64,000 nt of DNA, from the NCBI RefSeq assembly GCF_036971445.1, contig NC_091471.1, forward strand, positions 151,528,001-151,592,000, in the 5' to 3' direction. Made by a program: the position numbers and the translations under genes. Positions within the stretch are counted from its first letter, which is position 1. The number at the start of each line of letters is the position of its first letter. Of this stretch, positions 2,896-35,949 are shown piece after piece. The notes beneath the pieces are model-generated. The model had not been told where the DNA came from. It searched no databases and worked only from the letters and a program-made list of their open reading frames with translations. The DNA is from Narcine bancroftii. Its lineage: Eukaryota.

Positions 2896-4303
2896 CTGTA
2901 AAAAGCAACTTGTTACAATATTCCCTTCTTTACTATCTGATATTTGTACAGTAAATATGCAGAGCAGTGGTCAAATGATGTTTGTTATAAAAAAAATTGC
3001 TCAAATAAATGTGTTTGTTTAATTTCCTCTCAATTTTCAGATATCAAAAGCACAAATTGAAAGGGTTTAAGCAGAAAATCTATTAGTAAAGAACTGATAT
3101 GTTAAAGGATTATGAAGTCGACAAATGAATTGATATTATTAAAGACCTCAGATTCTTTAGTCTCAGACATTCTTTAAAATGTTGAACTATAGTTTCATGG
3201 CAGTAGTACGTGCAGATTTCAGATGTTGCATTGTGTTATTTATGAACAGTACCTCTTAATATAAAAAATCTAGCACTCAGCTTCATCTCTTTGCATCACT
3301 TGCCCCTCATCATAATAGTGGCAACCTTCTACCTCCCACAGATAGGAGAGGTTTTCTGTATCATGCACAGCTTAATATTTTATGCAAAGAGTTTTCTTGG
3401 AAAATACATTTTTAAAATTTTTTCAAAGGTTTCAAGCTTAGGTAATATGGAAAAAGATAATACAATCAAAAATCCCTCATATTTTTTGAAAAAATCCGGA
3501 GTGTTTATCTGTGACATTACACAATAAAATTTCAGTCATGAAATAGCATTTTAATTAGGTCATTTTAAATTGGCTTGCAGAGAACACAGCTAATATCATC
3601 CACCACAATATCTTTTGCTGTAGCTGTGTTATTGATGTGTTACTTCAGAAAAGGCATTTCAGGGCCACGATCTGGGGAGGAACTTCACATCAGATCATCC
3701 TAGACTCTATCCCAGGCCTCAAAGCAGAAACTGAGATTGGCTCACATGGAGCTCTGGGCTCTTCAACCATCTTTGCAAGAATTGCTGGTGTATTTGCCTT
3801 GGCAGCACTCAGGGGTGATTGCTAGCAATGAGGTCAAGGGAATAAAAGTGGGTGGAAGCTGGGAGCTGGGAATAGGTGAGGTAGTTGATGGTGTTGCAAC
3901 AATTGTGAATGGATATTTGTCCTGAAGGGGAAAGCAATGATCCTACCAATAAACAGACCTCTTAATCACAATGGCAGTAGTAGTAACCAATATCGTAGTT
4001 TTTCCTATTAACCAACAAATAGTTTTGGTCTGATCATCTCATTGCATGCTACATCCTAAGTTTGTCTAAAACAGATCCTCGTGTAAACCTACATCTGGAC
4101 TTCTTAAGTTATCCCCAAAGGCAGACTTAAAGATTTGGGTATAAGCACAAGAGTATTAATCTGATGATGTTGATTTTGAAAGAGGTATTAATGTCTTAGT
4201 TAACAATAAACTGCTCAAGGAACTTAGCAGGGCGAGCAGCATCAACAAGGGTCAAGGAATTACGAACTTTTGGGTTGATATTACATCAGGACTGAGAACG
4301 GAG

Positions 4304-7188
4304 GGGGGGCATGGCAAAATGGCATAAGGATCAGACGTGCCTTCCAGTCCTCTCCTGAGTCTATCTTATTGTTTTGTCTAGAAATGCCTGTTAAAATTCT
4401 TTAAAAGTTTAGATAATTTCAGTGCTGTTAATTTAACTTATGATGGTACAATTGGTGGAAAAGAGCAAAAGAAAACGACAACAGATCATCAAAAAGCTAC
4501 ATTTTCCAAAAGTTCAAGTTTTGGAGCCTACCTACAGGAAAGACATCGGGACTCAGCTTGAAATGGATCTCAGGAGAGAGGTACAGTGTTCGGATGTAGA
4601 GCTCTATGTTACATCGGTAGAGCCCCCTAAAGAGGATGCTAAACAGCCTTTAGAACAAAGAGTTACTCAAAGGCATTTGTCAACTGTAGAGGTGGTGCTG
4701 CAAACTGCATCTCTTGAGATAAAAGAACCTATACAACTTGATGTACTGGGAGAACTTAATACATTTTGGACTGGGGAAAACCCTGACCAGCATCCTCCAG
4801 TTATTGCTGGAGAGGCTGTGGCTGGGGTTTCCACATGCAGTCATACTATAAGGAAGGCAACCAGAATGAAGGAAGCAACAGAAGATCCTTTGGTTATGCA
4901 GAAGAAGCAGGAATCTGTTGAGCCAAAATCTCTTCCAATTGAAAAGATTTTTGTGAATCTTGAATCTAAATTATCTTGTACAATGCAGGGATTATCCAAG
5001 ATTATGACTGAACTTGGTACTAGGTTTAATACTCTGGTGAAAATACATTCTCAACAGATGGCTGAGTTTGGAGCTTTTAAGCTTGAAGTGAGAGATCAAT
5101 TTAATTCGTGTGAAGAAGATATAGACGAAATACGGGATCAAGTTTTTGATGTGACCTAAATGGTCGAAGACTTACAAACTCAAAATAAAAATTTGGTGAA
5201 AAAGATTGATTATTTGGAAAACCAATCCAGATGGAACAATATAAAGATTATTGGTTTGCCGGAAGGTATGGAGGGACCAGAGCCAAGAAAATTTTTTACT
5301 GAATGGATTCCTCAGGTGCTGGGTCAAGAACATTTCCCGGAAGGTATAATACTGGAACGTGCTCACAGAGCCTTGCGTAGAAGACCTATTTCAGGTCAAA
5401 GTCCAAGACCTGTTTTGGTTTGTTGCTTGAATTATTACAACAGAGAAATAATTTTATGATTGGCTATTAGAAATGCACAACAGAGAAAATCACCCTTGAT
5501 GATTCAAAATAATCGAGTTTTCTTCTATGCGGATTTGAGTCAAGAAGTTATGTTCCAACGACGGGAATTCAATCCTGCTAAAGAGTTGTTGTGGAAGAAA
5601 GGTTACAAGGCAACCTTTAGATATCCAGCTGTTTTGAAGGTTTTTCAAGATGGTTACCAACCAAAGTTCTTTGATTCTCCAAAGGAAGCTATTGCATTTG
5701 CTCAAGAGCTGCCAATTACTCAGTTTCAACAGAGACATAGTCCGCCGTGATCTTTAAGGAGACAAGAGATGGAAGAAAAGAGCCGTGCTCCAAGAAGGAA
5801 TGGTTGTAATGGTGATTCGGCAGTTGGAGCTGATTAAAAGAAGAGTTGTCCTTTTTTTTTCTAATGTTTTTTTTTTTAAAAAGGGATATTAAATAATGAT
5901 GATGTTAGTTTAAGATGAAGTGTGAGTTGGGGGAGAGAACTGGACAGGCACTATTTCCTGAAAGTCATCTGCTACGTGTGAGTTATCTCACACCCATTTT
6001 TTTGGGAGTTACCGCATTGCGCGGTTAAGACTGGAGGGGGTATTTTTAACCTCCTACCCGTTTTTTTTCCTTTTTTTTGTATTATTAGATTAAAGAGTGA
6101 AGGGGTTTTTTTTGTTTAAATATTAAAAAAAAAGCATAAGAAAGTATTTGATTGTTTAAAAAACTAAAAATTGATGTGGTTTTTTTTGTAAAGTTTATTC
6201 AGTAGATAAGGAATATCTGAAATTTAAATGTGAATGGGATGGATAAGTTTTTTTAAATATATTTTTTCTTTAACTTTAAGGTGAAAGGAGTGGTAATTCT
6301 GGTGTATATTATTTTGCTATTTTAGTTATAGAACGAAGGGAATAATGGTGAAAGTTATAAATTGAATTGTACAATCCTAAATGAGGCTTGAATTTTGTTT
6401 GTGGTTTATGCTCCATTTGTTGAAGATATAGACTTCGTTGTAGATGTGTTTTTATTATTTGGATATCTGAATTTTAACGTAATGATTGGGGATATTTAAA
6501 TGTGGTATTGGAGCTTTCATTGGATAACTATTCAAGAGTAAAAGGGAAAAATGGTGGAAGAGTACTAAAATTGAATTGTACAATGCTTAATGAGGTTTGA
6601 ATTTTGTTTTTAGATGGTGGTTTATGTGACTAATATGATGATAGATGTGAAGTTAGTTGATATTTGAAGGTTTATCTCTATAGAGAAATTTTTTTTTCAT
6701 CTTTTTTTTCATGCTACAATTTTTTTTTAAGAATTGATTATTGTTTAAGAATTTTTGATAGATAATGTTACTAACTTTACCAATTTTTTATAGTAAGTTT
6801 GAGTTAAATATATGTTTCATCTTAACTCCGTTTGTTAAATTTATGCATTTAAGTTTGATTTAAATATGTTTTTTAAGTCTGATATCTTAGTATTAATTAC
6901 TTTTCTTTTTGTTAGTATTTTAATCGGTTATGTTTTTGTTTTTTTTGGAAGTGGGTTTTTTTCTCACATATATTATTAACTTTATTAATTCTTCACTATT
7001 TATTTTGGGGGGAAAGGGGGGGTTGGACTAATTTGAGTTGGGTTATTAATGTGTAATAATTATTGGGGAGGGTATAGTTTATTTAGATTAATGATACTGT
7101 ATTGTAATTTTATTATTTTATTCTTTTTTTTAAATGTAATCCTATACGTTATTCATGTTATAAAATCTTAATTAAAGTTTAAAAAAAA
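4304..7188 (+). mobile_element. ORF1-only L1 derivative (HAL1/half-L1-like), ~2.9 kb, complete from 5' G-run to A tail
   Basis: ~16-bp TSD aggactgagaa(c/t)ggag at 4288-4303 and 7188-7203. L1 ORF1 present. Degenerate endonuclease motifs at 6170-6745, no RT, A-tail at 7181-7188. Confidence 0.85.
4440..5750 (+). pseudogene. L1 ORF1p (coiled coil, RRM, CTD; Transposase_22-like), one frame with two nonsense codons
   Basis: Three consecutive same-frame ORFs: LENQSRWNNIKIIGLPEG, IILERAHRAL, FYADLS, FRYPAVLKV. Stops TAA at 5157-5159 and TGA at 5457-5459. Confidence 0.9.
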
Positions 7189-7544
7189 GGACTGAGAATG
7201 GAGAGAGATCTATCCACCTACCACTCACATCGCAACCCATTGCAATTACTATGATTCTATCTGCCCATCATTTCATTATTAACACCTTCCTTTAATTGCC
7301 TTGCAGGATCTCCAGCCATTGATAATTCTACATCACCTTCCTGTTTCTGTCTCCACCTCCATCTTCTCTTCTCTCTTTCCCCCCCTCCCACCCTCCCCCC
7401 CCCCACCCCATCCACCTGATTCCATCTACTTGTCAACCTTTCCACATTAGGTCTCACCTCTTATCTGCCTCTCCTGCCTCACATACACGTCTCAATAGTG
7501 TCTGTCTCACCTCCAAATCTTCAGTCAATGCAGGATTTCAACCC

Positions 7545-14833: not shown

Positions 14834-17406
14834 CTGCAGAAAATTAGAATCACATCACATGTTCAGTGAAGTGAAGTTTTTTTTTGAAGCATCAAAACTC
14901 ATTTTCTATCCATTAGAAAAAAAAGCCAAAGGTGGTCTTCATTTCTGTGAATGCAGCTTTCATTTTGGATTAAGCTGAGCCAATTAAACTCGCTCTCCAT
15001 TTTTACAGCTTTACCACAATGTTTAACTCAGGAAAAATGGTAAGAAAGTTACGGGTTTGGTTCTTGCTCTTCATTGACTTAACTGGTCATGGTTGAGATA
15101 ATGACAGATGGTCTCTATGTGGTCTTAGCTCCTGATACAGAGGTTTGCCAGAATAGCTATTTCTGGACACTGCCTGGGTACACTATTTGGGAAAGGTCCA
15201 TGTCTGGATGTTAATAGTGCATGAAGTCAGAGTAAACTGAGCCACCAACACTTATTCACTTGTCTATGACATTAAGACATATAAATGTGCTGAAGTTTAA
15301 AAGATTCTATTTTTGAGTCATTCAGAACCAACTAATATTAAATTTATTAATACAGATTCCCTGCATTAATCCAAGGTTTCAAAAGAGTTGCAGCTATGCA
15401 TATTAGAAACAGTACCACAAACTGCCCCTAGATTAGTCTGGATTTTAAAAAATATTTTATTAACACTTACTCTGTGCAAAAAACTTGCCTCACAGTTTGT
15501 AGCCAGTTACAAAATTGAAAAAAGATTCAATTAGAGAAATGATAAACCCATAATACAATTTATGATGGTTAAATTCCCCACTGCCGCCAACTCCTTCCCA
15601 CCTTAGAAACCCCAAAAGGAAAAGATGAAAAAAAAAGAAAAGAAAGCAAATGAGAAATAAAAGGAAAAAAAAAAGAAAATCAAGGAAAACAGAAAGAATT
15701 GCCAAGAAAGTGCCACTCACCACACGGATCTCCAATATATATTCTGTTTAATTCTTTGGAGAAGGTTAACACAAGTCGTTAAGATTTGAAAATCGTCTAC
15801 AAATTTATACCTCAAATTTGTAAATACTGGAGCAAAAATTGCAGAAATATTTCATATTTATTTCCTAAATTATAAGTAATCTTCACAAGGAGAACACAAC
15901 TATACATCTTGGCATTTGATTGTGCCATAGCTAAATGTGAATCAGATTTCCAAGTAACTGCTATATATGTACTTGCCACTGTTAGTGCTATTTTGGCAAA
16001 TTTTGTTTGGTATTTATATAATTTTAATTTAGGTCTTGTCCCTGAGATATCCCCCAATAAAAATAGTTCTGGATTTTTTGGAAACCTAATTCCTATAACC
16101 TGTTCTAAAATTAATTCCTAAATCTTCCCAAAAAGTCCTATCTGGGGACGTTATCAAGTCGAATGTATAAAGTACCTACCTCCTCACCATATGTAAAACA
16201 TTGAACTGATAAATCTGACTTCAACCTATTTAATTTCTGCAGCATGAGATACAATTGCTGTAAAAAATTGTATTGAACCATCCAGTATCTTACATTTATT
16301 GTATTTGTCATACTATCCCAACAAAAATCAGAACTATTTTGTTCATCAATTTTAACATTTAAATATGATTCCCATCTCTGTTTGGCTTTCTGAAACCCCT
16401 GTTTATGAGTTCTCATTTGAAGTAGGAGATACATGGCAGAAGTAAATTTCTTTATAGTTTGTTTTCGAACCAAAGTTTCTACATCACTTCACTTTAGTAA
16501 TAACATTGTTGGGCCTAATTTATACTTTAAATATGCTATTACTTGAAAATAACAAATGAGTGTGTTATTAAGTAGTCTATATATTTTTAATTTATCAAAT
16601 GACATAAAATGTCCTCCTTCATAACAATCTTCAATATGTCTGATCCCCTTATGAGACCAAATAACTAAGAACTGATTTCTAATCATAAAAGGAATATTTT
16701 TTTAAATCAAAGGTATTTTAGCTGATAGCATAACCCCCAATGCTCCAAATTCACCATTTATCTTTCCAAGTATTGATCATATGTTTTTACAGAGGGGCTC
16801 TTTGTCACCACATATTAATTTTAATTTCCCATTTGTATATAAAATCCTCTGCTATTCACTCTCCTATTTTCTCCAATTCTATTTTTACCCATGCAGGTCT
16901 CTCTCCTTCCTCAAAAAAGAAGAAAGTAATGCCATTTGTGCTGCTTGATAATTTTTTAAAATTTGGAAGTTGTGATCTTGCTAATTCATATTTCCAAGTT
17001 AATTTTCTGATGGACACCCTGCATAGCTTAGCCTTCCAAATAAATTTTCTTACATATTTATTTAATTCCTGAATTGTGATATTGGCAGTGCTTGTGAATG
17101 ATATTGTATTCTTGTGAAAATATTCATCTTAATACAATTAACTCTACCCACTAATGTTATTGGCAAAGGCATCCACCTATTCAAATTTTCTTCAACCTTT
17201 TAAAGTAAAATTTATATAAATTATTTAAATTTTTATTTATACGCATCCCTAAATAATTTAACCCATTATTGGCAATTAAAATTGATAACTTTGACTTTTA
17301 ACATAATCCCTCCCATAAGAGGAATAATTTTGATTTTGTTCCAATTTATTTTATAGCCCCAAACTTTCCTATATTCATCTAATTTTGAGTGCAACTTTTG
17401 TACAAA

Positions 17407-18122
17407 AGCTGCTTTCAGGTGGAATCACCTGGAGAATGTGGTTCCATGGCAGCTGTGGGTAAGGCAGCTGTGGGTATCTGCAAAGGGAATTTCAGACAGC
17501 ACCGCTGATGCCAATGTTCTGCCACCTGAAATGTCCAAAGTGGGGAGAGATTCCACAGGGCAAATGCCAGCTCCTGAGTTGGGGCATCCGTCTGACAGCT
17601 CACCTCCCCGCTGCTGACAGCCCTTTCCTTGCTGCCTTTCAACCCCCTCTTCGCAGACTGACAACCCCCCACCCCCCAGCATGGGACTATGGGGCTGGAG
17701 CAGCCAGCATGGGACATCCAGGCTAGGGAAGCTAGTGCAGGGTGTCAGTGCTGGGGTGGCTGGCACGGGATGTCAGCCCTGACATCCTGCGCCACCTGCC
17801 CCAGCCCTGACATCCCGTGCTGGCCACCCCAGCACTGACATCTTGCGCCAGCCATTCCAGCCCCATAGTCCTGTGCTGGGGGGCTGTCAGACAGTGGGCA
17901 CCTTTAGTCTGCTAGGAACCTGAAAGCTGTGAGCCACTTTGCCTGGTGCTGCTTTCAGGTGCAACAGGGGATTCTCCAAGATGGAGAATATACGTACCCA
18001 AGGAGGGTTAGGTAAGTGCTCCTCCTGGCCAGGTTCTCCACTTTCAGGTGGCCACCCAATAGCTTCATTGGGGTAGAATAGGCGGCTTTACAGTCTGGTA
18101 TTCTGGCCACCTGAAAGCAGCT
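17407..18122. mobile_element. GC-rich non-autonomous DNA transposon, PIF/Harbinger-like MITE, inserted in the L1
   Basis: Perfect 16-bp TIR agctgctttcaggtgg / ccacctgaaagcagct. 3-bp flanking repeat aaa. L1 RT sequence resumes across it. Internally palindromic. Confidence 0.75.
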
Positions 18123-19622
18123 AAAGTTGCTGGTTCTGTCAATTATATCAAAACAAATAAAGTAATTTTATTTTCCCCTTGATTAACCCTAAATCCTTTA
18201 ATATGAAGATCATACTGAATTGCTTCTCCAAGCAGTTTTATAGCTAAAATATATAAAGCTGGAGATAATGGACGTCCTTTTCTACTCGACCTAGTTAGCT
18301 GGAATGGTGCAGAAGCTTGTCCATTTGTTACAACTTTGGCTTTTGCCTCATAATATTATGTTCTAATCGAATTTAGAAAATCTGTCCTAACCCAAATCTT
18401 TCCAGCACTTTAAATAAAAAAAAACCTATTCAAGTCTATCAAACATTTATTTCTGTATCTTAAGCCATCCAAACACTCAAACCCCCTCTCTTTTGTGCCA
18501 AATGATTTACACTAATTAATCTAGTTACATTGGCAGCAGATTGTTTCTTTTTAACACAGCCTGTTTGATCAATATTTATTAATTTTGGTAAAAATTTTGT
18601 CAATCTATTTGCTAAAATTTTTGCTATAATCTTATAATCTGAATTTAACAATGAAATAGGACTATAGGATGATGGTTTCAATGGGTCTCTATCATTTTTT
18701 GGTATAACAGTAATGAATGTAGTTGAAAAAGATTCTGGGAGAGTATGCATTTCCAATGTCTGATCTAATACCTCCATAAAAAGAGGAATTAATAAATCTT
18801 TAAATTCTTTGTAAACTTTAAGTGGGAAACCATCTTCTCCCAGAGACTTATTACTTTGCAGTAAACAAAATGCTTCCCTCACCTCATTTTGAGTGAAAGG
18901 ACCATTCAATTCTACTTGTCTTTCTAACTTTAACCTTGGAAGACATATGTGTGAAAAAAATCCTCTATTTTATTATCATCACTTTGTGATTCAGATTGAT
19001 ATAGTTTAGAATGAAATTGTTTAAAAATCTCATTAATTTCTTGAGGTTTATAGCATTCAAATCTATTTTTACTGCAGTAATAATTTTTGAGACCTGCTTT
19101 GCTTTAAACTGCCAAGAAACAACCTTATGAGCTCTTTAACCTAGCTCATAATACCTGTTTAGTTCTTATTATTGCCTTTTCTGTTTTTATATGTTTGCAA
19201 TATATTATACTGATTTTAAAAAATTAATAAGTTGCCTATGTTTATCCTCAGTCTTTTTTGAAATATAGTATACCATTTCCCAATTGTTCTAGCTCTCTTA
19301 TAAAATCCTTCTTAATCTTAGAAGTATAACTTACAATTTGTCCTCTTAAATATGCTTTCAGAGTATCCCATATAATAAATTAACTCAACGTGAATTAGTC
19401 TCACAATTTTTTCAAATTTGCCTTCTAATAAAAATCACAAAAATCTGGTCTTTTTTTAACAGCAAAGAGTTGAATTTCCATCTATAAACTGATCATCAGG
19501 CATTGTTACAGTCATTAATAAAGGTGAATGATCTGATTAAATTCTCACTACAGCTTCAATAATCCTACCTTGTAAATATGCTGACATTAAAAATCAATTC
19601 TAAAATAAGAGTTATGTCTATT

Positions 19623-19764
19623 NNNNNNNNNNNNNNNNNNNNNNNNNNNNNNNNNNNNNNNNNNNNNNNNNNNNNNNNNNNNNNNNNNNNNNNNNNNNNN
19701 NNNNNNNNNNNNNNNNNNNNNNNNNNNNNNNNNNNNNNNNNNNNNNNNNNNNNNNNNNNNNNNN
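19623..19764. other. Assembly gap (N run)
   Basis: Run of n. Confidence 1.
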
Positions 19765-21086
19765 ACTTAATTCAGTTCTATCATTCATGCCAAAAAGGCT
19801 TTTGCCCTTATCACTACTCTAGTTGACCGATCTTGTTGGATCCAAACAAAAATTAAAATCGCCATCTACTGAAGTATTTTCATAAGCATCTGCTAATTTG
19901 AGAATTGTTTCTTGAATAAATTTCTCATCATTTACATATGACACATACAAATTCATAAGGGTCCATAGTTCTGAATAAATCTGACAATGTATTATTACAT
20001 TTCTTCCTGCTATATCTGTTACTACATTCTGTATTTTAACTGAAAGATTTTTCCTCATCAAAATTGCCACTTGCCTTGGCTTTGAATTAAATAAAGAAAC
20101 TATAACATGTCCCACCCAATCTCTTTCATTTTTGATGTTATTTTTCAATTAAGTGAGTTTCTTGCAAAATGGCTATGACAGCTCCCATTGTCTTAATGTG
20201 TGTCAATACCCACTTTCTCTTCACTCTCCCATTTAACCTATTAACATTAAAACTTATAAATTTCACTCATCCCTATTAAAAAAATATCACTGTATTCTTA
20301 TATTCCCAGATCTTCTCTCCCCATGTGACTCCTCCAATAATTTGATCAATTATTATCTTTCATGTTTGAGCACATCTTCCCCAGCCATCCAGGTAGAAAA
20401 AAAAGAATAGATATATAAGAAGAATATGACACACATAGCAATCAAAATTAAACAAACTACAAAAATTTCCCATATTAGCATTATATAAATAATGCACAAC
20501 ACTACCCCCCTCCATTATATAGGTTGTGCCAAATGCCACAAAAACACACGTGACTTGATAATAGTCAGACATGCTATACCCCTAATACCCCCAGATATTT
20601 ACCAGATATTTGTTAATCATTCTTCTTATATAAAAATAATGTTTTAATTAAATCAAAGGAACAACAATATATTAATTTAGTCACTCCGACAATTGGGCAT
20701 TCGTCAATGACTCCACAAACTCTTCTGCCCCGCCACTATCTGAAAAGAATTTTCTTCCACTGTCTGGCAAGGAGATCTTTAAAGTGGCTGGATGATGCAG
20801 TATAAATCTATATCCTTTTTGCCAAAGAGGATTTATAACCTTTGCTTCAGTAATGCTACGCTTACGTCTGGATAGATTAAAACTCTACATACTTGATATC
20901 AAGTGGACCACTTGCTTTTTCTCCTTTGCCCACCGCAGTCATTATCTTCTCTTTATCATGATATCTCAAGCATTTTATCAGAATAGAGTGTGGCTTTTGA
21001 TCTGGAAATGGCTGTGGTCTGAGAGCTTTGTATGTTCTCTCAATTTCAATAGGTTGTTCCAACTTTTCCTCTCCGCTTCAGGTATC

Positions 21087-31794: not shown

Positions 31795-33860
31795 TTTTTA
31801 ATTTTTCACACTATGATCCATATTAATCAAAATACACACAATTTCCCTCTTGAGTATACACAGTGTCATTTTCTCCCCTTTTCCCCCCTCCCTTCCCTCC
31901 CTCCTTCCCACCCCCCTCCAAACCCATTAAACATTCAACATATACAATACAATAACCTATTAAACAATGTCATCACACAATGAAAATAAGAAAATTGTGT
32001 CATCTACTTTTACACACTGGGTCAGTTCATTTCATCTTTTTCTCATTCTATCATTTTAGGGGGTGGAGGTTGGCCGTCTCTGTTGTGTTCCATGTATGGT
32101 TCCCAAATTTGTTCAAATAATGTGACTTTATTTTTTAAATTATATGTTTTTTTTTCCAATGGAATACATGTATTCATTTCCATGTACCATTGTTGTACTC
32201 TCAGGCCCTCTTTTGATTTCCAAGTTGGCATTATACATTTTTTTGCTACAGCTAAGGCTATCATAATAAATCTTTTATACGGTTCATCCAGCTTAAGGCC
32301 TAATTCTTTACTTCATATATAACTTAGAAGAAAGATCTCTGGATTTTTTGGTATGTTGCTTTTTGTGATTTTATTTAATATCTTATTTAGATCTTCCCAA
32401 AACTTTTTCACTTTCTCACATGTCCAAATTGCATGTACTATTGTTCCCATTTCCTTCTTACAGCGAAAACATCTATCTGATTCTGTTGGATCCCATTTAT
32501 TTAACTTTTGGGGCGTGATATATAGCCTGTGTAACCAACTATATTGTATCATGTGTAACCTGGTATTTATTATATTTCTCATAATTCCAGAGCATAACTT
32601 TTCCCATATTTTATTTTTTATCTTTATGTTTAGATCTTTTTTTCCCACATTTGTTTGGGTTTATAGCTTATTTCATCATTTTCTTTCTCTTTCAGATTGA
32701 TGTACATGTGTTTTATAAATCTTTTAATTATCAGTGTGTCTGCAATCACATATTCCAAGCTACTACCTTCTGGTAATCTCAGTCTGCTTCCCAATTTGTC
32801 CTTTAAGTAGGTTTTCAGTTGGTGGTATGCAAACATTGTACCATATTTGTACATCATTTGTTCAAATGATAATAAATTATTTCCCAAAAAACAACTTTCT
32901 ATTCTTTTAATTCCTTTTCTCTCCCTTTCTCTAAAGGAAAGGTTATCTATTGTGAAAGGGATTAGTTGATTTTTCATCAATAATAATCTATCTCCCTCAC
33001 TGTTCGCTTTAGCAATAGAACCATTGGCAGAATTGATAAGAGCAGAAAATAAAATAAAAGGGATAAAAATAAAAGAGAAGGAATATAAAATCAGTCTATT
33101 TCAGATGATGTCATAGTATACTTAACAGAACCAGAATTATCAATAAAAAAATACATAAGAAATTGAAGGAATATGGAGAAATATTGGGGTACAAGATCAA
33201 CGCAAATAAAAGTGAAGCAATGCCAATGAATAATGTGGAATGCACAAAGTTTAAAAAAGAATCACCATTTAAATGGCAAACACAAGCAATCTGATACCTA
33301 GGTATTAGACTAGATAATAATCCAGGCCAGCTATACAAATTAAATTATCAGCCATTAATGAAGAAATTACAAGATGACTTAGAACATTGGAAAGATTTAC
33401 CACTAACACTGATAGGAATGGTAAATTGCATTAAAATGAACATCTTCCCCAGGATACGATACCTATTTCAATCATTACCAATTCCCTTAACAGAGAAATT
33501 CTTCAATGACCTAAAGAGAATAATAAGGAAATTCTTATGGAAAGGGCAGAAACCAAGGATGGCACTAGATAAATTAACAGAATGGTACTAACAAGATGGT
33601 TTGCAGCTACCAAACTTTAAAAATTATTATAGAGCAGCACAATTAAGATATCTATCAGATTTTTATCAAACAAGGGAAAAAACAGATTGGACCAAGATAG
33701 AGCTAGATAAAATAGGGGAGAAGGTACCAGAACATACACATTATAAGTGGGATGAAAAACTGGTGCAATATAGAAGTTCACCAGTACTGCACCATCTGCT
33801 CAACATTTGGAAGAAGATTCACATAGAAAGGAAAAATAAATAAATTACCAACTACCAAAA
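31795..33860 (-). mobile_element. L1 with a 5' inversion: 3' part on minus (31795-32987), upstream part on plus (32988-33860)
   Basis: Plus part LSPSLFALAIEPL...NYQLPK joins minus part LLLMKNQLIPF with no gap. ~17-bp TSD at 31778-31794 and 33856-33872 (2 mismatches). Confidence 0.92.
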
Positions 33861-34595: not shown

Positions 34596-35949
34596 CAGTG
34601 GTTCTCAACTTTTATCTTTCCACTCACATACCACTTTAAGTAATTCCTATGCCATCGGTTCTCTGTGATTAGTTAGTTGGTATGTGGGTGGAAAGAAAAA
34701 GTTTGAAAACCATTGTTTTAATTCAGAGCCAGCTCTTCAGCGCTTGACGTCCTGCTTTGCGGAAACTGCCAAAATGTTTGGCCTGGAAGTCAGCCTGAAG
34801 AAAACTGAGGTCCTCCATCAGCCAGCTCCCCACCATGACTACCAGCCCCCCCACATCTCCATCGGGCACACAAAACTCAAAACGGTCAACCAGTTTACCT
34901 ATCTCGGCTGCACCATTTCATCAGATGCAAGGATCGACAATGAGATAGACAACAGACTCGCCAAGGCAAATAGCGCCTTTGGAAGACTACACAAAAGAGT
35001 CTGGAAAAACAACCAACTGAAAAACCTCACAAAGTTAAGCGTATACAGAGCCGTTGTCATACCCACACTCCTGTTCGGCTCCGAATCATGGGTCCTCTAC
35101 CGGCACCACCTACGGCTCCTAGAAAGCTTCCACCAGCGTTGTCTCCGCTCCATCTTCAACATCCATTGGAGCGCTCACACCCCTAACGTCGAGGTACTCG
35201 AGATGGCAGAGGTCGACAGCATCGAGTCCACGCTGCTGAAGATCCAGCTGCGCTGGATGGGTCACGTCTCCAGAATGGAGGACCATCGCCTTCCCAAGAT
35301 CGTATTATATGGCGAGCTCTCCACTGGCCACCGTGACAGAGGTGCACCAAAGAAAAGGTACAAGGACTGCCTAAAGAAATCTCTTGGTGCCTGCCACATT
35401 GACCACCGCCAGTGGGCTGATAACGCCTCAAACCGTGCATCTTGGCGCCTCACAGTTTGGCGGGCAGCAGCCTCCTTTGAAGAAGACCGCAGAGCCTACC
35501 TCACTGACAAAAGGCAAAGGAGGAAAAACCCAACACCCAACCCCAACCAACCAATTTTCCCTTGCAACCGCTGCAATCGTGCCTGCCTGTCCCGCATCGG
35601 ACTGGTCAGCCACAAACGAGCCTGCAGCTGACGTGGACTTTTTTACCCCCTCCATAAATCTTCGTCCGCGAAGCCAAGCCAAAGAAATGTGGGTGGAAAG
35701 AAAAAGTTTGAAAACCATTGTTTTAATTCTACCTAATTGATTCGTTATGTGCACGGTTTCATAACTCCAAAGGAAATGGGCCAATGACAATTTTTCTCAA
35801 GCAAAATATTTCAGTAACAATTGGGTCTCAACCTTCCCTTTTCCTTCACTTACCATCTTAAGCAATCTCTTACTAATCACAGAGCACCAATGGCCTAGGG
35901 ATTACTTAAAGTGGTAAGTGAGTGGAAAGAAAATGGTTGAAAACCACTG
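34596..35949. mobile_element. hAT-Charlie MITE interrupted by an RTE
   Basis: cagtggttc..aaccactg termini. Imperfect 8-bp TSD tatcaaac/aattaaac. Confidence 0.88.
34725..35686 (+). mobile_element. RTE LINE, 5'-truncated, with an uninterrupted ~300-codon ORF ending at 35631
   Basis: RT thumb region through a C-terminal CxxC..H..C motif (CNRCNRACLSRIGLVSHKRAC). Identical 43-bp flanking duplication. Confidence 0.95.

Follow-up and report, generated by a model that had tools for sequence, protein, structure and literature searches.

Introduction

The half-L1 elements (HAL1) of mammals were reportedly described by Smit in 1999 and by Bao and Jurka in 2010. They are non-autonomous and encode only ORF1p (PMC5753468), and the type of element treated here is as such already known. 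Editing of retroelements is known in the form of clustered G>A changes of the sense strand, with C>T used as the control, and APOBEC1 is assigned to tetrapods and APOBEC3 to placentals (cited passages of PMC3880073). For the strand-biased base composition of LINEs, the cause is called unclear and RT error improbable in the cited part of PMC9099904. Here we analysed a window of 64,000 nucleotides of the ray Narcine bancroftii (NC_091471.1, positions 151,528,001 to 151,592,000; coordinates below are those of the window), in which a sequence-only reading had seen a strand-specific C>T hypermutation of a vestigial endonuclease. New is a quantified sense C>T pressure on one L1 clade that is opposite to known editing, together with the correct parent of the affected sequence, its match to synonymous sites, a sharing gradient, context tests and a contrast to CR1. 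A published sense-strand C>T drift in L1 was not found in our literature search, in which subscription journals were poorly covered.

Results

A chimeric half-L1 with a deleted ORF2

The stretch 4299-7188 (2.9 kb) belongs to a multi-copy family of ORF1-only L1s of the HAL1 type, of which it is one copy, and all its features lie on the forward strand. It is a chimera of the front half of one L1 family, L1-A, and a deleted ORF2 of another, L1-C, and both parents are autonomous families. The copy is flanked by an 11-bp target-site duplication, the letters at 4288..4298 being identical to those at 7188..7198. The 5' UTR (4299..4439) is common to autonomous L1-A, with homology to sister copies and L1-A from about 4300-4305 on. 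It is followed by the L1 ORF1 (4440..5837), which is open over 466 codons in the family majority and interrupted by stops at 5157, 5457, and 5748 in the window copy. ORF1 differs from L1-A at 28 of 1527 sites, with 11 synonymous and 16 non-synonymous differences, which are few, and the capture is recent; its Pfam match to Tnp_22_dsRBD is weak and under the cut-off (E 0.06). Near 4669, 33 ORF1 codons are absent here and in most sisters, which are present in L1-A and in some half-L1 copies. The inter-ORF spacer (5838..6113) has 4 differences from L1-A in 279 sites and is of the A/B type, not of the C type, which fixes the direction of capture for the spacer. Three hairpins are predicted within it (5970-6058) that are conserved in L1-A, L1-B, and L1-C and have retained their C; the consensus fold of five sequences has little covariation.

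The junction between the L1-A front and the L1-C-derived back is a 9-base microhomology (6114..6122), the motif of which occurs in both parents. The alignment to L1-C begins at 6114, and identity to L1-A falls from 95 to 69% at 6128-6132. As far as 6130, autonomous L1-A matches the half-L1 at about 95%; beyond, it continues into an intact endonuclease and RT, which are only 69% like the remnant, whereas L1-C fits both the remnant (75-78%) and the 3' end (69-71%) better. The endonuclease remnant, the intact L1-A counterpart of which matches PF03372, comprises a first part (6114..6541), an internal duplicate of 6336-6402 (6542..6611, self-match 80%) and a second part (6612..6770). The match of the endonuclease to L1-C stops at its position 2638 and resumes at 5682, so that a deletion of about 3 kb removes the RT. 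The last ORF2 codons and a T-rich 3' UTR (6781..7180, aligned to L1-C 5682-6087) lead to a short poly(A) tail (7181..7188), as read from the sequence, and sister copies end alike. The region 6120..7180, taken as vestigial endonuclease before, is endonuclease only in its first part (6114-6770), whereas 6781-7188 is ORF2 end and 3' UTR. A template switch would have joined the L1-A front to a deletion element that is older and derived from L1-C.

Searching the genome yielded 2185 candidates, and the best 39 other copies scored are 92-97% identical to the window copy. The element thus resembles HAL1 in several respects: many copies have ORF1 frames of 450-517 aa in addition to the open family majority, ORF2 is non-functional with its RT deleted and its endonuclease broken by stops, frameshifts and the duplication, it arose from existing L1s (front 98% to L1-A, back 75-82% to L1-C), and it moves as a unit, as seen from the target-site duplication, the poly(A), and the 39 best-scored copies. 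From the L1-type 3' end and the target-site duplication, the half-L1 is probably mobilised in trans by an L1 ORF2p. Exchange of ORF1 was also seen among the autonomous families: one ORF2, about 93-96% identical, stands behind two ORF1 types, L1-A and L1-B, that are only 72-75% alike (L087 and L124-L149 versus L061-L093), and thus autonomous families swap ORF1 too. Elsewhere in the window, the minus strand carries an older, decayed L1 with traces of ORF1 and ORF2 (16165-21074), the sense strand of which is likewise C-poor, and a further L1 fragment with an inversion lies at 32436-33822. A GC-rich open frame of 320 codons is located at 34669-35631 and gave no Pfam match.

Sense C>T in the endonuclease remnant

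The C-poverty that was noticed from the sequence is real: 6601-6660 has 1 C and 16 G, and the 1061 bases of 6120-7180 comprise 65 C, 194 G, and 481 T; no other 1-kb stretch of the window, on either strand, is as poor in C or G. The recovery of an endonuclease motif by reverting T to C also holds, as L1-C has FNSKAKGVAILVH at the site where 6269-6307 has FNFKVKGVVILVY. For the spectrum, 648 aligned endonuclease sites were compared with the majority of 41-42 L1-C copies. C>T was found at 50/75 sites and G>A at 7/127 (Fisher p 5e-21), with C>T 32/49 and G>A 5/86 in the first part of the remnant and 13/19 and 1/25 in the second. The other changes are rare (A>G 10/224, T>C 12/222, A>T 20/224, T>A 5/222, G>T 5/127). 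Only 4 of the 75 parental C stand in CpG, in line with the claim that many of the sites are non-CpG. Polarised by the outgroup L1-A, C>T is 39/58 and G>A 7/107, which is the polarity opposite to that of cDNA deamination. An equally C-poor parent had been named as a refutation; L1-C has 75 C and the remnant 32 C in these 648 sites. The corrected C>T/G>A rate ratio is 25 (bootstrap 12-89), and the implied equilibrium C/(C+T) is 0.07, which lies close to the value for synonymous sites in L1-A and L1-C, 0.10. As proposed, fixation occurred under relaxed selection: codon positions 1-2 hold 63 of the 68 parental C, 42 of which are now T, and the L1-C parent keeps only 5/68 at position 3. The remnant has therefore lost the position-1/2 C that protein function had preserved in the parent.

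Two candidates were rejected at this point. L1-A, which shares the ORF1, was tried as parent of the remnant, gave G>A 22/125 and was replaced by L1-C. Slippage beside T runs was dismissed with C>T 29/52 before T and 31/50 otherwise. Seven changes are present in both copies of the internal duplication and hence preceded it, and eight are private and followed it; C>T accounts for 4/7 of the former and 1/8 of the latter, counts that leave room for an early burst in the remnant. The segment 6781-7188 is T-rich by inheritance, the L1-C parent having 27 C in 391, and its asymmetry is weak (C>T 10/27, G>A 13/60). This would be expected if the UTR drifts in both lineages, yet it still counts against a clean story.

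Two parts of the sequence-only reading did not hold. The first is the hypermutation of this copy, since the changes are common to the family and its 39 best other copies are 92-97% identical, so that the C-poverty belongs to the source sequence of the family and is not damage of one copy. The second is the use of two ORF1 stops (TAA, TGA) as a C>T signature. At the TAA of 5157, AAA stands in 40 of the 41 copies that cover it, which makes it an A>T change, the TGA at 5457 is CGA in 33/40 copies and thus ordinary CpG decay, and the codon at the third stop, 5748, is CGA in 36/42. All three stops are private, ordinary decay, one by A>T and two by CpG changes, and are no evidence for the drift.

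The drift acts on the autonomous families and accumulates with inheritance

The drift is not special to the vestige: it is repeated and fixed in relaxed sequence, but synonymous sites of autonomous L1s drift as well. Between L1-A and L1-B, synonymous sites differ by C/T at 18/242 and by G/A at 6/249, corresponding to a rate ratio of 14 (6-56) in two-state estimates that assume stationarity. These estimates replaced polarity by parsimony, in which saturation of the outgroup produced a spurious T>C excess. In the comparison of L1-A with L1-C, saturation has been reached at C but not at G sites. Fourfold sites of ORF2 in L1-A and L1-C consist of 5-8% C, 12-14% G, and 43-52% T, and the base composition of the remnant is close to these values.

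The question whether the skew grows along the family was answered with 141 copies of four families, all chosen as top scorers. The per-site, non-CpG C>T/G>A ratio rises from 1.26 for private variants (C>T 352/44552, G>A 477/76011) over 1.63 for variants in pairs to 3.64 for variants in at least three copies (C>T 98/1623, G>A 45/2710), the shared classes including recurrent mutations and mis-polarised sites. The half-L1 set excludes L011, L026, L031, L037, L041, L045, L050-52, and L057-59 (low-identity autonomous alignments, duplicated loci), and duplicate or recombinant loci were removed from the sets of the other families. Across all four quartiles of age, for which the proxy is noisy, the C>T excess is 2.7-3.8 per 1000 C. 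The gradient fits a process that acts per cycle or on the source lineage and is diluted by symmetric decay after insertion. When one ancestral-state pattern was used to look for older, half-converted copies, three matches came up, all of the young type; decayed copies would escape such a search. A low-depth contig labelled as a second organism (run X5, 6153-6629) carries the remnant with seven differences, which hints at C loss before the split.

A host Hsp90 exon as passenger of a second half-L1

A second ORF1-only family (L241, L251-L271) has an L1-C-like ORF1 and a different ORF2 remnant, and probably is of independent origin. Within it lies a sense-oriented piece of a host Hsp90 exon, 210 bases long; the family search recovered the host Hsp90 genes as well as the multi-copy fragment. 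In the majority of 21 copies, the piece has C>T at 20/23 and G>A at 4/51 compared with the host exon (p 3e-11), T>C at 1/35 and A>G at 9/101, and C was converted in all sequence contexts. The family's own ORF2 remnant has C>T 15/20 and G>A 6/41. The sister-subfamily copy L241 has 12 conversions in common with the others, keeps C at 6 sites and has one conversion of its own, and this intermediate pattern argues for a stepwise conversion rather than a single burst. Six short Hsp90 retro-fragments, all from one host region and only assumed to have undergone a single cycle, are without excess (C>T 5/251, G>A 9/282).

Other LINE clades of the same genome

In CR1 of the same genome, the C>T/G>A ratio at synonymous sites is 0.35 (0.08-0.86) and A>G is the fastest change, based on 10 copies and two sister copies that were selected for long frames; a private C>T excess was not found in the 10 CR1 copies. 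Two CR1 families (L204-L217) have 8-9% C and 31-33% G at fourfold sites, brought about by fast sense A>G. A fragment inserted in L202 (4477-5180), which we take to be RTE-like, has a reverse-strand frame in which 41% of the 97 fourfold sites are C, a C-richness that contrasts with L1 and CR1. The distant L1-D (RT identity 42%) has a C/(C+T) near 0.22 and a weaker bias, its C>T excess being restricted to shared variants (12 versus 2).

No signature of a deaminase

The 184 shared C>T changes have no preference at -1 (p 0.70) or -2. Neither WRC (58/516 versus 126/1101 for other contexts, 0.112 versus 0.114) nor TC (59/545 versus 125/1072, 0.108 versus 0.117) is enriched, and a W-C-W preference was not found among them; they do prefer a 3' pyrimidine (p 0.0005), for which we offer no explanation. 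WRC is not depleted at synonymous sites. None of the 141 copies is hyperedited, the dispersion being 0.94-1.56 and mildly raised only in L1-C (p 0.013), and the longest pure C>T mismatch run is three. The excess of sense G>A that cDNA editing leaves was not seen in the remnant, where G>A stays far below C>T. Among 11 candidates in the host genome there was one APOBEC_N match, the best Pfam hit of which is APOBEC2, although split genes, e.g., AID, could escape this search. RNA contigs were rejected as evidence for editing, as the contig type is uncertain and the family is multi-copy, and at five C>T places the window copy has a private T>C.

Discussion

A proposed miscopying of C by the ORF2p of the L1 clade

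Any explanation has to meet the observed polarity, magnitude and lineage-wide, stepwise action of the drift as well as the absence of context and clusters. Of the two alternatives put forward from the sequence alone, the biased RT is the better one, whereas editing of the AID/APOBEC type does not stand as the lead cause, as there is no 5' context and no hyperedited copy. To a miscopying of C by the clade's ORF2p in each cycle, which is suggested by the comparison of copies, we give close to an even chance. Both half-L1 families would borrow the ORF2p of the L1-A/B/C clade, and each retrotransposition cycle would add a few sense C>T changes. The simplest chemistry would be a dA paired with rC of the template during first-strand synthesis, where the mismatch in the RNA:DNA hybrid would evade mismatch repair; alternatively, dT could be placed opposite dG in an ORF2p-made second strand. 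In this way the sense strand would be under a constant pressure from C to T, independent of context, that builds up along a replicating L1 lineage. Since protein constraint would purge most C>T from working ORFs, the drift should come to light in third positions and dead passengers alone, the latter sinking to about 5% C. The lineage-wide action at autonomous synonymous sites and in the Hsp90 passenger supports such a copying error, and an element-encoded cause is ranked first mainly because CR1 would be expected to share any RNA process that acts throughout the host.

The human L1 RT is error-prone, with 2.2e-4 in cDNA and 5.7e-4 in the second strand, but according to the cited data its commonest cDNA error is at thymine, unlike the drift found here (PMC11331410). 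The excess among private variants, about 3e-3 per C, is roughly tenfold higher than the error reported for this enzyme, if a single cycle is assumed (cited data of PMC11331410), and therefore one must suppose either that each sampled branch hides several cycles or that this RT is sloppier. L1-A and L1-C have the ordinary RT motif FADD, which also counts against miscopying.

Possible conversion of C in the RNA or in the source DNA

An unlikely alternative is that C of the RNA becomes U without any enzyme, either by Pol II placing rU opposite dG or by deamination in long-lived ORF1p particles, and that faithful reverse transcription then fixes the change. Polarity, missing context and missing clusters would all follow, as would an excess that is confined to C>T and leaves T>C level with A>G, and C>U is indeed a general bias of transcript errors in bacteria, for which deamination and dG:rU pairing are blamed (PMC7259958). 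All retro-RNAs of the host should then be affected, however, and CR1 has no C>T excess; moreover, C predicted to be unpaired were not converted more (0.378 versus 0.382), and a putative, L1-specific storage of RNA would be required.

Editing of L1 RNA or sense DNA by a host cytidine deaminase, as a low-level germ-line activity recruited via ORF1p particles, appears improbable. Its chemistry and polarity would be right for a lone, 15-25-fold C>T excess, and the figure of about 3e-3 per terminal branch is more than one would expect of a polymerase. Specificity for a clade is possible as well, given that lizard APOBEC1 selectively inhibits ORF1-encoding LINEs in the cited experiments (PMC3880073). 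The missing WRC, TC, and W-C-W preferences, the conversion of Hsp90 C in every context, the absence of hyperedited copies, the longest run of only three and the single, APOBEC2-like APOBEC_N match speak against it. The enzyme could be a germ-line deaminase without the usual sequence signature, other than APOBEC1 and APOBEC3, that slightly edits the ORF1p-particle RNA of one clade in each cycle, which we consider improbable to the same degree. If true, a deaminase would have driven an L1 clade and its passengers to about 5% sense C, the mirror of known retroelement editing.

Slightly less probable again is a mutation associated with transcription, in which the exposed, non-template sense DNA deaminates at a heavily transcribed master copy in the germ line. 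It predicts context-free sense C>T on internal branches, as observed, but the source loci of CR1 are transcribed too and have no C>T excess. Moreover, transcription asymmetry in vertebrate genes is well below twofold and thus too small for a 15-25-fold effect. Selection for a U-rich, C-poor RNA instead of a mutation bias is very improbable: it would agree with the excess of A>T over T>A in the remnant, with the T-rich spacers and 3' UTRs of fish L1 (PMC5381506) and with the argument that selection maintains LINE composition (cited part of PMC7140322), but if selection had raised C>T 15-25-fold, it should also have held down T>C, which equals A>G in the remnant and is likewise read as unsuppressed in the Hsp90 piece, while G>T is not elevated and a lean towards C>T is present in private variants already (p 0.001).

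Comparison with known systems

Miscopying by ORF2p, our preferred reading, concerns a general question. Dead passengers of known ancestry, namely the endonuclease and the Hsp90 exon, read out the effect of repeated retrotransposition directly, and one genome offers two spectra, a 15-25-fold sense C>T in an L1 clade and an A>G-led one in CR1. The question of mutation versus selection in LINE composition thereby becomes testable, and editing screens that use sense C>T as negative control may have a non-zero baseline.

With the non-LTR elements surveyed in PMC7140322, the ray L1s share that L1 is AT-rich and that clades differ within one host, as far as the cited part of that survey goes. In fish L1, A is about equal to T, and GC3 is 32% there compared with 23% here (C3 4.5%, G3 18%; fish values from the cited part of PMC7140322). 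Only singletons were analysed in the cited part of that study, whereas the bias found here lies in inherited variants and dead passengers, which points to mutation. With APOBEC-mediated G-to-A editing of lizard L1 and mouse IAP, as documented in the cited parts of PMC3880073 and PMC9099904, the drift shares a strand-specific cytosine transition in copies. It differs by its opposite polarity, by the absence of clusters and dinucleotide context, and by its extent over many cycles and autonomous families. A further close system is the mammalian HAL1, like the ray element an ORF1p-only L1 derivative with both ends, poly(A) and target-site duplication that forms a family (cited description in PMC5753468). 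The ray half-L1 derives from a local L1-C and has taken its front half from L1-A, unlike mammalian HAL1, and it also retains a readable endonuclease remnant. A strand-specific C>T drift, as carried by this remnant, is not mentioned in the cited part of the mammalian HAL1 description (PMC5753468).
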